56,471 nucleotides of DNA from a virus. Each line of letters opens with the position of its first letter. Within the stretch, counting starts at the first letter, position 1. Positions 42,612 through 47,657 of the stretch are shown here, one piece after another. The notes beneath the pieces were generated by a model that was not told where the DNA came from, made no database searches, and saw nothing but the letters and a program-made list of their open reading frames with translations. A program made the translations under genes and the position numbers. The DNA lies in IMG/VR virus record IMGVR_UViG_3300045988_098109, one strand, 5' to 3'.

Positions 42612-42977
42612 TTATACTCCCAACACTATATTTGCATCAATATTTAGCTTCCGGCTTATCTCACGAGCAACTTTCAAGGTTGGTTCACATTTACCAGATA
42701 TATAATCACTTAATCGTGATGGGCTGACACCAACTAACTTTGCAAGTGATTTTTGATTAAGCCCCATTTCGTACATACGAAGTTTAAGAACATCCACAAG
42801 TGTTGGTTCTCCCAATGCAAAATGTTCTTCGGAATAATCAGCAACCAAATTAGAAAGAAGCTCCAATTCTATGCTATTTGGGTCATTCAAAGGAGTATCA
42901 TCTTTCACTAATGGAAGAAGTTCCTCTACTCTTTTCACCGCCCATTCATATTGGGCTTGATTTTCTATCTTTGTCAT
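42612..42977 (-). CDS. higA: HigA-type antitoxin (XRE HTH)
   Basis: 121 aa with the HTH LNQKSLAKLVGVSPSRLSDYISGK, immediately downstream of the HigB-like toxin. Confidence 0.7.
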   Translation of the reverse strand: MTKIENQAQYEWAVKRVEELLPLVKDDTPLNDPNSIELELLSNLVADYSEEHFALGEPTLVDVLKLRMYEMGLNQKSLAKLVGVSPSRLSDYISGKCEPTLKVAREISRKLNIDANIVLGV

Positions 42978-42981
42978 AATC

Positions 42982-43275
42982 CTAAATATTAGCGCAATCT
43001 ATTTTATCATATTCTTTATGAGTACCAATAAAGCGAATATACACAAACTGAATAGTGAATTTAATCACTACTACCAAACGATAGTTATTGCCTTTGATAT
43101 TGAAAACATAGTGTTGATTACCTACATTATCAACGCTATTAAACGTTTTCTTAATATCGGCAAAACAGGTCCACTTGCTTCTTTTCACAATGGTAGTCCA
43201 TTCTTGCAAAGCGACCTTTGAATCGGGATGGTTCTCTGCATATTCTTTTAATGCTTGTTCGGTAAATATTCTCAT
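42982..43275 (-). CDS. higB: HigB-type mRNA interferase toxin
   Basis: 97 aa. ...VFNIKGNNYRLVVVI.....VYIRFIGTHKEYDKI is the HigB-family signature. Confidence 0.7.
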   Translation of the reverse strand: MRIFTEQALKEYAENHPDSKVALQEWTTIVKRSKWTCFADIKKTFNSVDNVGNQHYVFNIKGNNYRLVVVIKFTIQFVYIRFIGTHKEYDKIDCANI

Positions 43276-44949: not shown

Positions 44950-47145
44950 TTAATGTGTGAATATTCCTGTTAAATCTTTCGGCTTCTGAATCTTACCAAG
45001 AAGCTCACCCAATACATAGTAACGTACAGCATCTATACAATTATGCACGAGAACCCCATTAGCAAAATATTCATGTTCACCTTCAATGGTCAAATCATAT
45101 ACCTCGCAATAGCTTTCACTTATTGTTTTTACGTCTGTTACTTGCTTGCAGTTTATGTGCGCATTCTTTTGAACAGCATTTGGGCTTAAGATACTTGTTC
45201 CCCATGAATGTGATTCCGCAGTATTGGCACACCATTTCTGTCGTACATTTAGGCGAGGTGTACTGCCATTTGTGATGGCATTTCTTTGAGCAAAATCGCT
45301 GATGAACATTTGTTGCTGTGAATCGTCCGCCACATTGCTCGCACACTCTCTCTTCGCTCTGTAATCGGGCAATTGCCTTAATTCTTCTTTGATTCCAATT
45401 TGATTTTGTATATGCGCCTTTTGTGTTAAGACCCATTCTGACAATATTGTCAATTTTCTCCGGATGTAGCCTATTATGTTCACTTCTTGAAACCGCTTCA
45501 AGGTTTTCAATCGAGTTATTGAGCGGATTGTGGTCAATGTGGTGGATAATCTTTCCATTCGGAATTTCCCCATGATAGAATTTGTAAACGGCATGATGCA
45601 GCATCTCGCTCTGTTTGTTTCCGTGTCCAAATTTCCAATAGTAATAATTGGGGTGTTTCCCATTTGGATACCGTTTGTACACTCTCCCGTTAAATTCGAT
45701 AGAACAAACAACTTGTCCCCTTTTGTTAATTTTCCGTACTTCTTCCATTTTCCGTTTGCGTTAAATTTATGTTCTAAGGTAGCAAAAAATGTTCGTTTTT
45801 CAAAGCCTATAAAGACTTCTTTTTCAATTACTTTTCTTACTCCGTTATTGTGTTTCTTAAGCACTTTTTTATAACCATTTCGTGTAAGAACATAATCCCC
45901 GACCCGAATATCCTTGATAGGAATATCGCCATTTATGGTAGTAATCAGTGTGTCTCCACGAAAGCAGTGGTTGTTTGCATCCACTGGAGTGTTTATATAC
46001 CTTCCGTCTTTATCTTTATCCCATACATAATTCCTCAGCTCATTTTGCAGGTTGTATGAACGCTTGGTTACGAAAATTTCAAGACTTTGCATTTTGTCAA
46101 TTCCTGCATTGATTGATCCAGCACCTTTTTCGACGGCATATATCCTTATTCCCCCGTTATGGATTTCTTGTATCAATCTCGGATCTGCGCTATCGGCAAT
46201 AGTTTTCATGCCCCAGGGTCTAAGCGATTTGACTATATCGGTTGAAAGCAATCCGGTTCGGTAATCTACTTCGTCAAGATATAGTCTATTATCCCATATT
46301 CCGCACCTAACTATCGCTGTGGGGTCCATGCTATACCCAAAGTCCAGCCCTATGCCAACTTTTTTGCATTCAGCCGGGAACTCGTCAACAATTCCCCACT
46401 TCTTGAACACAGCACCTTCTGCAACGTCAGCCCACCGGCCGATAACCACATGAGCATACTTTTCAGGATTACTCACCTTCATATCTTCCACCTCTTTCAG
46501 GAACTCAGGAGAAAGGTTATCCAAGTTATCAAAATACGTAGTATGGATATGGAGCACATTCGGATGAGTGGAAACCTGAACCTGCACACCGTCAATCTCT
46601 ACCAGCTTGTGAGTTTTCTCAATGTATTTCTTGTAGATGAAGTGATTGGAATCGCATGGGTTCATTATAATGATAATCCGGTTCTGAATACCCTTCTTGC
46701 GAATGGAGAGCATTATCTTGTCGAACTCATCTTCGCTTGTCCACTCTTCCGCTTCATCACAGACAAAGGTTGTAATGCCTTGGATAGATTTCAGTTTGGC
46801 TGTCTGGTTCCCGGAAGAAGTCTTGATACCCCGAAACATGATACGACTGCCGGTCATGCGGTTTACTATATCTGTCTTGGTAGTCTTAAAATATTTAGTT
46901 GTTCCGTCCAAATCTATCTTTTCCATCATCTCTGGAATAATAGACATACCAGCCGACACCATTGTGTAACGGGTATAAAGAATCTGATGGACTATTTTCT
47001 CTGTAGGAGTCATTTCAAATGTCAGCCGCTCAATGAAAGTAGAAGCATTGAAAGACTTTCCTGAGCCACGACCTCCAGTGATGAGAATGATAAATTTCTC
47101 GTCATCGGTGTATAACGGATGATATATCTCTTGGGGAACAATCAT
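44950..47145 (-). CDS. terL: Terminase large subunit interrupted by an intein
   Basis: Walker A LITGGRGSGKSF. The extein junction ..PVDANNH/C...HN/CIDAVRYY restores the NH-x-DAxRY nuclease motif. Confidence 0.85.
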   Translation of the reverse strand: MIVPQEIYHPLYTDDEKFIILITGGRGSGKSFNASTFIERLTFEMTPTEKIVHQILYTRYTMVSAGMSIIPEMMEKIDLDGTTKYFKTTKTDIVNRMTGSRIMFRGIKTSSGNQTAKLKSIQGITTFVCDEAEEWTSEDEFDKIMLSIRKKGIQNRIIIIMNPCDSNHFIYKKYIEKTHKLVEIDGVQVQVSTHPNVLHIHTTYFDNLDNLSPEFLKEVEDMKVSNPEKYAHVVIGRWADVAEGAVFKKWGIVDEFPAECKKVGIGLDFGYSMDPTAIVRCGIWDNRLYLDEVDYRTGLLSTDIVKSLRPWGMKTIADSADPRLIQEIHNGGIRIYAVEKGAGSINAGIDKMQSLEIFVTKRSYNLQNELRNYVWDKDKDGRYINTPVDANNHCFRGDTLITTINGDIPIKDIRVGDYVLTRNGYKKVLKKHNNGVRKVIEKEVFIGFEKRTFFATLEHKFNANGKWKKYGKLTKGDKLFVLSNLTGECTNGIQMGNTPIITIGNLDTETNRARCCIMPFTNSIMGKFRMERLSTTLTTIRSITRLKTLKRFQEVNIIGYIRRKLTILSEWVLTQKAHIQNQIGIKEELRQLPDYRAKRECASNVADDSQQQMFISDFAQRNAITNGSTPRLNVRQKWCANTAESHSWGTSILSPNAVQKNAHINCKQVTDVKTISESYCEVYDLTIEGEHEYFANGVLVHNCIDAVRYYVLGELLGKIQKPKDLTGIFTH
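45040..45966 (-). mobile_element. Class-1 intein (309 aa) in the TerL nuclease domain
   Basis: Begins CFRGDTLITT (block A), has TLEH (block B) and ends VYDLTIEGEHEYFANGVLVHN followed by +1 Cys. Confidence 0.8.
45116..45748 (-). CDS. HNH homing endonuclease, nested out of frame inside the intein
   Basis: 210 aa. HHIDHNPLNNSIENLEAVSRSEHNRLH plus two CxxC...C..C zinc-ribbon repeats. The ORF is offset by 2 nt from the TerL/intein frame. Confidence 0.8.
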   Translation of the reverse strand: MEEVRKINKRGQVVCSIEFNGRVYKRYPNGKHPNYYYWKFGHGNKQSEMLHHAVYKFYHGEIPNGKIIHHIDHNPLNNSIENLEAVSRSEHNRLHPEKIDNIVRMGLNTKGAYTKSNWNQRRIKAIARLQSEERVCEQCGGRFTATNVHQRFCSKKCHHKWQYTSPKCTTEMVCQYCGITFMGNKYLKPKCCSKECAHKLQASNRRKNNK

Positions 47146-47657
47146 TTCAACTTGTCTTTAATCCACGAATCAATATTGATTCCGTGTTCAATATCTTTAG
47201 GTATATCGGCATCTTCATCTTGTCGGCGTTCAACCTTTCTCCATTCTTCATCATGATGGTATAACCAAACGGACATTGCCTGAAGGTTTGGAGCCAGTTC
47301 ACTTTCACTTACCTGAAGTTCTTCTTCACCAGTCAAGTTGCCTTCTTGGTCTTTCAGTTTTCTTACCACGGTGCTTTTGGTTTTTATGCCACCGAGAGCC
47401 ATTGCAAGGAATTTAGCCCTTACAGTGGCATTGATTGTCGCGCGCCCACGCGCTAAGACTTCGGATATTTCGGTGTACTCACTTTTCTTTTCGCAGAATG
47501 TTTGAGGCAAAATCCCTATGGCATAAGCAATTTCCTTGTCAGTGAATCCCTTTTTGGCATACGATTCCACGAGAGAAAGAAATTCCTCGCTTGTATAATC
47601 AAACTTAGGCTTTCTTCCTCCTTTACCTTTTCTATTTTGAGATTCACTATTGCTCAT
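47142..47657 (-). CDS. terS: Terminase small subunit
   Basis: 171 aa with an HTH-like FTDKEIAYAIGILPQTF. ATGA overlap with TerL. Confidence 0.65.
   Translation of the reverse strand: MSNSESQNRKGKGGRKPKFDYTSEEFLSLVESYAKKGFTDKEIAYAIGILPQTFCEKKSEYTEISEVLARGRATINATVRAKFLAMALGGIKTKSTVVRKLKDQEGNLTGEEELQVSESELAPNLQAMSVWLYHHDEEWRKVERRQDEDADIPKDIEHGINIDSWIKDKLK

Follow-up and report, generated by a model that had tools for sequence, protein, structure and literature searches.

An HNH_3 endonuclease gene nested out of frame within a predicted terminase intein of a Bacteroides phage and of other viruses

Introduction

Endonucleases encoded out of frame within inteins were reported in 2025–26 for other endonuclease families, and we here describe a widespread new variant of this arrangement, in which an endonuclease gene of the HNH_3 family is nested within an intein of a phage large terminase (TerL). 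The element is found in IMG/VR virus record IMGVR_UViG_3300045988_098109, a stretch of DNA of 56,471 nucleotides (nt) that in its entirety is called the window in the following, and that belongs to a Bacteroides phage. An initial reading made from the sequence alone (the sequence-only reading) had noted the locus and had considered intein endonuclease domains as being normally in frame, a view that the reports of 2025–26 have made outdated.

Three recent reports, all from one group, describe the most closely related systems, namely a class of actinophage inteins, the ShiLan element and a cyanobacterial dnaX intein. The actinophage inteins carry an ‘endonuclease VII-like’ endonuclease (IPR004211) in reading frame 3, many of them in terminases, and were presented as unreported before, with a proposed origin in a free-standing endonuclease gene invading an intein; that paper treats the out-of-frame class without codon-level evidence, start-site evidence or ratios of nonsynonymous to synonymous substitution rates (dN/dS). 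The window element resembles this class in having the endonuclease open reading frame (ORF) placed on the same strand, in frame three and between the splicing blocks, with a host frame that is open and unstructured, and in the many TerL hosts. It differs in using an HNH_3 domain with two zinc ribbons instead of IPR004211, and in its hosts, which are phages of Bacteroides, Clostridioides, Acinetobacter and Tetrasphaera together with many uncultured viruses. Homology to the ‘endonuclease VII-like’ ORFs of actinophages was considered and set aside, as no link was detectable by tblastn and Pfam. When tblastn was run with either the HNH protein of the window or that of Tetrasphaera phage TJE1, the matches listed included no phage of Mycobacterium or Gordonia and no other actinophage of the SEA-PHAGES type, and the sole actinobacterial phage among them was TJE1, itself a carrier.

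The ShiLan element (Arsenault et al., Genes 2025, PMC11855218) is a hidden out-of-frame HNH endonuclease with zinc fingers in actinophage DNA methylase genes, likewise with a stop-free host frame and a disjunct, homing-like distribution. It lacks a HINT domain, however, and its read-through peptide stays in the methylase, whereas in the window element the read-through segment has a complete intein around it and its removal is predicted. The cyanobacterial dnaX intein holds a LAGLIDADG endonuclease in the +2 frame, with purifying selection on the endonuclease and raised dN/dS in the host frame (Phillips, DeSimone & Gogarten, bioRxiv 10.64898/2026.09.14.751524); the overlapping frames of splicing domain and endonuclease, the +2 offset and the pattern of selection are all similar to what we describe here, with the difference that a LAGLIDADG enzyme in a cellular replication gene is replaced by an HNH_3 enzyme in a phage terminase. 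The window element thus has the architecture of the actinophage inteins, the enzyme type of ShiLan and the selection pattern of the dnaX intein.

Two further comparisons are of relevance. Canonical in-frame HNH inteins (Dalgaard et al. 1997, as cited in the report on the actinophage inteins) also combine HINT with an endonuclease of HNH type located in the corresponding loop, but there the endonuclease belongs to the intein polypeptide whereas the HNH of the window is a separate out-of-frame gene. The fractured genes of Dassa et al. (2009, PMC2677866) share with the present locus an independently translated endonuclease gene between N- and C-terminal intein parts, but consist of two ORFs joined through trans-splicing, in contrast to the single ORF of the window and of the 87 nested loci described below.

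Results

The intein of TerL and its splicing domain

All features discussed here are on the minus strand, as given by ORF listing and translation, a point that the sequence-only reading had left unstated. The TerL precursor is encoded by an ORF of 731 amino acids (aa) plus stop at 44950–47145, which in Pfam matched Terminase_3 (E=1.3e-25), Terminase_3C, Intein_splicing (above its cut-off) and several HINT families. Both the ORF listing and Pfam agree with the sequence-only reading in placing an insert of 309 aa at TerL residues 394–702 (45040–45966; Intein_splicing, PT-HINT and Hint_2) that starts with CFRGDTLITT and has TLEH about 65 residues in. Its first residue is Cys1, its block B motif T-L-E-H occupies intein residues 63–66 (T456–H459 of TerL), and it ends with ...EYFANGVLVHN, the terminal His-Asn being followed by Cys703. 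The N-extein (TerL residues 1–393; 45967–47145) ends with ...PVDANNH, and the C-extein (residues 703–731; 44953–45039) begins with CIDAVRYYV... and completes the nuclease motif; its first residue, the +1 Cys, is encoded by TGT at 45037–45039, where Gly (GGA) stands in the intein-less allele. Without the insert, the sequence reads ...DANNH-CIDAVRYYV and yields a predicted spliced TerL of 422 aa, and the claim that such removal restores the terminase nuclease motif is borne out by the intein-less TerL of the Bacteroides phage BS-TP2, further described below. The residues C394, T456, H459 and N702 were invariant across 39 relatives, with the C-terminal H701-N702 followed by C703 and with the +1 Cys found in at least 90% of the relatives.

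The TerL frame of the element was modelled with AlphaFold2 over 329 residues and fold matches were obtained with Foldseek. In this model the HINT lobes reached predicted local distance difference test (pLDDT) values of 92–97. The N-terminal splicing lobe, with blocks A and B (about TerL residues 394–483; 45697–45966), had a pLDDT of 94–96 over model residues 11–100, and the C-terminal lobe, with blocks F and G and terminating with EVYDLTIEGEHEYFANGVLVHN (45040–45156), had values of 92–97. The two lobes superposed on the gp41-1, RecA and DnaB mini-inteins at target template modelling (TM) scores of 0.68–0.80, with 0.80 for gp41-1 and 0.79 for RecA. Between the lobes lies a spacer of about 180 residues (about residues 484–663; 45157–45696) with no recognisable domain, mostly modelled at a pLDDT below 60 (38–61) and having one long isolated helix of moderate pLDDT (77–88), which shows no signal of amino-acid conservation. 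No endonuclease fold was seen in the TerL-frame spacer, since Foldseek gave no match beyond the HINT lobes and Pfam gave no domain within the spacer. By its motifs and its modelled fold, the TerL insert is thus a class-1 intein with a HINT splicing domain, for which splicing activity is predicted. HNH ORFs are typically held by phage group I introns, and the insert might be taken for one of these, but here it is open and in frame, it has all of the HINT motifs and it is modelled confidently as a HINT fold. This explanation is exceedingly improbable and was rejected, with no group I ribozyme or intron family found within the insert in Rfam at E<=1.

The nested HNH gene and its product

Wholly inside the intein lies a complete HNH ORF of 210 aa plus stop (45116–45748), on the same strand and in the third frame with respect to TerL (+2 nt; (47145-45748) mod 3 = 2), as the sequence-only reading had it. 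Its product contains two Cys4 zinc ribbons and matched HNH_3 with E=1.4e-16 and 60.3 bits, at a curated cut-off of 24.8 bits, this being the only Pfam family matched by the nested ORF at E<=0.1. Among its homologues H69, H70, D72, N78 and H95 were invariant and N82 and H91 were found in at least 90%, and the eight zinc-ribbon Cys residues were all conserved, as were the catalytic His and Asn. The structure model was confident (pLDDT 91.7, from a 34-sequence alignment), and its best match in PDB was the homing endonuclease I-HmuI (1u3e; probability 0.98, E=1.4e-3), with a global TM score of only 0.21–0.24 because the modelled HNH protein is elongated and multi-domain. As judged from this conservation and from the model, the nested ORF encodes a real protein that is predicted to be an I-HmuI-like endonuclease.

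The boundaries of the ORF do not coincide with those of the spacer. According to the structure models, ~17 codons at the start of HNH coincide with the final strands of the HINT N-lobe, and ~12 codons at its end with the initial strand of the C-lobe. The suggestion that the HNH ORF ends exactly where the C-terminal splicing block begins was thus near to what is found, but was not exact.

The TerL frame is held open by codon choice

For the counting of stop codons, registers are named from the HNH ORF, the TerL frame being +1. In ordinary genes of the window this register contains 0.0625 stops per codon, from which 13 would be expected per 210 codons. When the HNH codons were redrawn from the usage of the 33 other genes of the window, the TerL frame acquired a mean of 6.4 stops and was stop-free with P(0)=1.8e-4, which is in agreement with the earlier statement that so long an alternative frame is unlikely to stay open by chance. 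Permuting the ORF's own synonymous codons left the TerL frame stop-free in 1.7% of trials (P(0)=0.017), under a null that already includes the codon bias being tested. The bias was also visible directly, as the 16 HNH positions having Leu, Ile or Val before a codon starting with A or G were encoded by NTT or NTC in 16 of 16 cases; in the genome of the window phage, ATA makes up about one-third of the Ile codons, and NTA or NTG about 70% of the Leu and about 55% of the Val codons. Eleven free-standing HNH homologues had 3–14 stops each in the corresponding +1 register. We conclude that the TerL frame is held open by codon choice, beyond what chance would give.

The same arithmetic bears upon the choice of register. 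In the +1 register a stop requires NTA or NTG followed by A or G, which can be escaped by synonymous choice, while in the +2 register it requires NNT followed by AA, AG or GA, which is inescapable in proteins rich in Lys, Asn, Glu, Asp and Arg. With shuffled codons of five loci, the expected number of stops was 2.5–5.3 in the +1 register versus 19–37 in the +2 register. The offset is therefore constant across loci because +1 is the only register that can be cheaply kept open, and the same rule would, by inference, also account for the ShiLan and actinophage cases.

Selection on the two frames

Substitutions in the overlap were counted in both frames, with omega values being simple Nei–Gojobori estimates and with the rows L018, L085, L031, L037, L046 and L059 left out as mis-trimmed. 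Within the allele group of the human-gut contig MT838676, synonymous to nonsynonymous changes in the HNH frame were 11:2, 9:4 and 3:0 for close pairs, and omega was 0.11 in more distant pairs. Read in the TerL frame, the identical substitutions gave 1:12, 2:11 and 0:3, with omega at 0.8–1.05. Among the relatives, omega of the TerL-frame overlap was about 0.8–3, and stops were never acquired. The HNH frame is thus under purifying selection on its amino acids, whereas the TerL-frame spacer is selected only to stay open. That both frames are selected had been proposed from the window alone, and it agrees with the present values, HNH omega being ~0.1 and the TerL frame being at 0.8–3 yet stop-free.

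Recurrence in cultured phages and other viruses

The HNH protein was used in tblastn searches of GenBank phages, and a motif-seeded scan covered IMG/VR together with a single genome for each GTDB species. The tblastn matches fell inside the annotated terL of three cultured phages, namely Tetrasphaera phage TJE1 (Actinobacteria), Clostridium phage phiCDHM19 (Firmicutes) and Acinetobacter phage Highwayman (Proteobacteria), each with HNH nested in terL, and inside the human-gut contig MT838676. In all four, the TerL ORF continues through an HNH ORF of 200–230 codons, in identical relative register. In the literature searched, no paper was found that links inteins with TJE1, phiCDHM19, phiCD119 or Highwayman. 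The scan gave 102 further loci, 106 in total, and in 87 of these an ORF of 256–1159 aa in the HNH+1 register covers the whole HNH (the shortest being limited by contig ends). Nesting in the +2 register was found in 0 of the 106, barring one chance match of 57 residues. Stops in the TerL frame were absent from all 87 nested loci, which reach down to 17–30% protein identity.

The intein character of the host ORFs was also evident. Most of the 81 distinct host ORFs had, 12–31 residues after the HNH stop, an intein block of the form ...VYDLxVExxHEFFANGILVHN/C, the slash here and below marking the splice or insertion point. Among 39 diverged representatives (17–69% identical), 37 matched Intein_splicing and most matched Terminase_3, Terminase_6N or GpA_ATPase. 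As the C-extein junctions differ (CIDAxRY, CDAxRY, CRYA, CVWGLTDL and CDPxxL), several insertion sites, at least three, and several terminase families are occupied. The host labels comprised Bacteroides, Corynebacterium, Planctomycetes, Allohahella (two prophage copies) and contigs from metagenome-assembled genomes (MAGs) of Thor-, Woese- and haloarchaea. The archaea-binned nested loci, found in MAGs of Halobacteriales (L097), Thorarchaeota (L088) and Woesearchaeota (L098), may be archaeal viruses or binning contaminants; the host ORF of L097 is 1159 aa long and has Thr instead of Cys as the +1 residue. About a dozen HNH homologues were free-standing, with intein blocks not found nearby, and one distant homologue (L105) was in frame inside an intein.

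Such loci are annotated inconsistently across GenBank phages, such as Vibrio phage 1.245.O (MG592610), Lactobacillus phage CL2 and Acinetobacter phage BP10. Some records give a single long terminase, others an ‘HNH endonuclease’ only, and those of Vibrio give separate pieces of a ‘hedgehog/hint domain protein’, so that the inteins are easily overlooked or misclassified.

These comparisons bear on the possibility that the TerL of the window is a disrupted pseudogene of a defective phage, with a free-standing HNH gene having landed in a mini-intein and the open frame being a leftover. Free-standing homologues do exist, and frameshifted copies (P0001, P0003 and P0039, see below) show decay or errors. 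On the other hand, there were 0 TerL-frame stops in the 87 deeply diverged loci against the 3–14 of each of the 11 free-standing homologues, the splicing residues are all invariant, the plaque-forming TJE1, phiCDHM19 and Highwayman carry the arrangement and need TerL, and elsewhere the window aligns over 72% with the cultured phage BS-TP2, at ~96% identity. The pseudogene explanation, which is very improbable, was rejected on the stop-free host frame as compared with the free-standing controls and on the cultured carriers; homologues with stops in the intein frame, which the sequence-only reading had named as a sign of a pseudogene, did not occur in the homologue set.

Expression of the HNH ORF

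The HNH ORF is preceded by an A-rich leader, ATAAATTTAACGCAAACGGAAA-ATG (aaatttaaaac...ATG; 45749–45770), that holds two TAA stops in the HNH frame, at 45761–45763 and 45767–45769. Two stops upstream of the ATG had indeed been noted before, although they are at codons -5 and -7 instead of 4 and 6 codons away. This type of A-rich leader was common to other Bacteroidota-type loci, while Shine–Dalgarno motifs occurred there in other host groups. Across 58 distinct loci, of which three have GTG in place of ATG, a start codon is found 49–79 codons upstream of the HHxD motif, mostly at 50–69, with an HNH-frame stop usually 0–10 codons ahead of this conserved start. A Shine–Dalgarno core (GGAG, GAGG or AGGA) was present at positions -17 to -4 in 24 of the 38 non-Bacteroidota loci, compared with a background of 8.8% in the same terL ORFs. 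Bacteroidota initiate translation without Shine–Dalgarno pairing, and the A-rich leader of the window fits with this.

As one alternative, HNH could be made by programmed -1 frameshifting, giving a fusion of N-extein, HINT N-lobe and HNH in which the HINT part would help to target the enzyme. The offset (+2 = -1) matches a -1 slip and is constant in all loci, but this constancy is already explained by the stop-codon arithmetic. Moreover, the HNH-frame stop located 0–10 codons before the start in most loci leaves almost no space for a shift site, and no slippery heptamer of the type X_XXY_YYZ was found by inspection by eye of 45700–45770, while ATG or GTG and Shine–Dalgarno motifs are conserved instead. 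We regard this explanation as improbable to a high degree. Both internal initiation and frameshifting had been offered by the sequence-only reading, and of these internal initiation at the ATG at 45748 is favoured because of the conserved ATG, the nearby upstream stop, the Shine–Dalgarno enrichment and the lack of a slippery heptamer.

Mobility of the element

The window is ~96% identical to BS-TP2 across 72% of a 24-kb stretch, and BS-TP2 is a viable phage without both the intein and the nested HNH. Its TerL (422 aa) is exactly 309 codons shorter and reads ...DHDNH-GIDAVRYYV, with the site NH/GIDAVRYY having Gly at +1 and with the intein-less site sequence GACAATCAC/GGAATAGATGCT. The spliced TerL of the window and that of BS-TP2 align without gaps at 90.5% identity. 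At the nucleotide level this identity (BS-TP2 being L107) is a mosaic, with 99–100% at nt 450–720, 63–80% over ~370 nt before the site and 96% after it; the low-identity stretch at 45967–46340, upstream of the intein, may be a co-conversion tract from a diverged donor.

The intein DNA was the same as that of the window in 8 full-length IMG/VR contigs, and 2 more contigs differed by 1–5 substitutions and were indel-free. The N-exteins of those contigs are only ~94% identical, with dS of about 0.25, and in three of the contigs divergence sets in again inside the final 78 nt of the intein. An identical intein in diverged flanks is the pattern expected of recent homing or horizontal spread with variable conversion tracts.

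The identical copies also bear on the idea of an assembly or sequencing artefact, in which HNH would truly be in frame, as in a canonical HNH intein, and two compensating indels would have created the offset. In-frame HNH inteins are known, the distant L105 being one, and variants with a single frameshift exist, as in P0039 at HNH codon 62 and in P0003 at codon 124. Against this stand the intein DNA being identical in 8 contigs and free of indels in 2 more, the HNH ORF having its own start and stop with stops flanking it in its frame, the identical offset of the 87 loci, including three independently sequenced cultured phages, and a codon choice that specifically shuns TerL-frame stops. Compensating indels, which the sequence-only reading had named as what might undo its proposal, are refuted by the 10 contigs and 87 loci, leaving the artefact with a negligible probability.

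The frameshifted variants are otherwise as follows. In P0039, the change from the TerL to the HNH frame occurs near HNH codon 62. P0003 passes from the HNH to the TerL frame at codon 124, through an apparent 1-nt deletion inferred from protein, and represents 16 sequences on 3 contigs. For P0001 an out-of-frame deletion of ~16 nt is inferred near the HNH end. All three may be homopolymer errors or decaying copies.

Relatives lacking HNH were also found, with P0048 being a mini-intein of ~120 residues and P0046 being decayed and retaining the tail of the overlap region. P0040 (full, with spacer), P0046 and P0048 are located at a second TerL site, DFGF[TS]/CDPTA, in the first motif of the nuclease domain, and their HINT lobes are 41–57% identical to those of the window, which suggests site switching within the terminase. 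Similar HINT lobes, at 33–41% identity over ~23–32% of the query, were seen in DnaX-type proteins (DNA polymerase III gamma/tau; P0112–P0117, P0130 and P0131) of 489–558 aa, apparently as mini-inteins.

One may also consider the nested HNH as a packaging accessory, analogous to the HNH proteins that are encoded beside the terminase genes of HK97-like cos phages and stimulate terminase cleavage, with its position serving co-expression. HNH genes adjoining terminase genes are common and functional in packaging (PMC3592412), and a nested gene is necessarily transcribed with terL. However, the close relative BS-TP2 is viable although it has neither the intein nor this HNH, copies of the element in diverged hosts are identical, which is to be expected of mobile DNA, and the element always comes with a HINT domain and occupies several unrelated TerL families at >=3 insertion sites, and the best structural match of HNH is a homing enzyme. 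A packaging role is hence improbable, if somewhat less so than the other alternatives weighed here.

Neighbouring genes

Directly downstream of the portal gene, at 42612–43275, the window encodes a HigB toxin (PF09907, E=2.5e-32) with an HTH_3 antitoxin. BS-TP2 has in that slot, on the opposite strand, a free-standing endonuclease gene with NUMOD4 and HNH_3 (L107:5760–6338), so that accessory or selfish genes appear to be exchanged at this position behind the portal gene. On the other side, an ORF of 171 aa (47142–47657) with no Pfam match overlaps the start of TerL by 4 nt; the syntenic gene of BS-TP2 is annotated as DUF5681, and by its position the 171-aa ORF may be the small terminase subunit.

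Discussion

Taken together, we find it highly probable that the nuclease domain of TerL here carries a mobile intein whose two parts are encoded by the same DNA and translated separately. During translation of TerL, ribosomes would traverse the insert, whereupon the HINT lobes would fold, excise themselves and join ...DANNH to CIDAVRYY..., giving a terminase of 422 aa. The ~180-residue spacer between the lobes would be non-conserved, with being stop-free as its sole requirement. Read 2 nt out of register, the same DNA would provide a complete I-HmuI-like HNH gene with its own internal initiation at the ATG at 45748, and the endonuclease would cut intein-less TerL alleles of co-infecting phages. 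Repair would then copy the whole unit of intein and HNH into the cut allele, i.e. homing. The initial proposal of a HINT domain whose linker is kept open only for TerL, with a separately translated HNH, thus gains support from both the comparative and the structural evidence.

Several points weigh against this interpretation. Splicing activity, a separate 24-kDa HNH product and site-specific cleavage are predictions. For the window itself the start-site evidence consists only of the conserved ATG, the A-rich leader and the upstream stops, Bacteroidota being without Shine–Dalgarno-led initiation. The likeness to I-HmuI as found with Foldseek is local (TM 0.21–0.24). The loci are furthermore not independent, as 13 of them carry the HNH protein of the window (100% identical) and ~17 belong to one other allele group; because loci share alleles, the count of 87 of 106 and the p-value of the Shine–Dalgarno enrichment overstate the number of independent cases, of which ~39 diverged representatives remain. 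The survey was seeded by an HNH motif pattern, and the proportion of nested versus free-standing loci is therefore biased. Finally, the three database variants of the window intein, P0039, P0003 and P0001, have frameshifts that would break TerL, either as errors or as decaying copies.

A more far-reaching interpretation, possible but in our view rather unlikely, is that the overlapped layout is an old, stable and selected end-state, and not the transient landing of an endonuclease gene in a mini-intein. The element would then be a pan-phylum composite mobile element, found in >=3 TerL families, at several sites and in viruses of both bacteria and archaea, that remains in the single register permitting dual coding. 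Nesting may in addition couple synthesis of the endonuclease to late translation of terL, for instance if passing ribosomes unmask the internal start.

If true, such an end-state element would be a present-day case of inteins originating by ‘splicing domain first, endonuclease invades later’, having all stages extant in the free-standing, nested out-of-frame, distant in-frame, decayed and mini-intein forms. The locus also illustrates that a coding ‘spacer’ can persist through selection against stops alone while the same DNA encodes a conserved enzyme, and it offers a simple rule for the third-frame position of nested endonucleases. The intein type known from actinophages and cyanobacteria (2025–26) is hereby extended to the HNH_3 endonuclease family, with a range covering phages of Bacteroidota, Firmicutes, Proteobacteria and Actinobacteria as well as archaeal MAG contigs. 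Because of inconsistent gene calling, many such inteins have probably been mis-scored as decaying or as mini-inteins. With its free-standing, nested, decayed and mini forms, together with the cultured intein-less phage BS-TP2, the family makes up a tractable system for studies of homing and of the origin of intein endonuclease domains.

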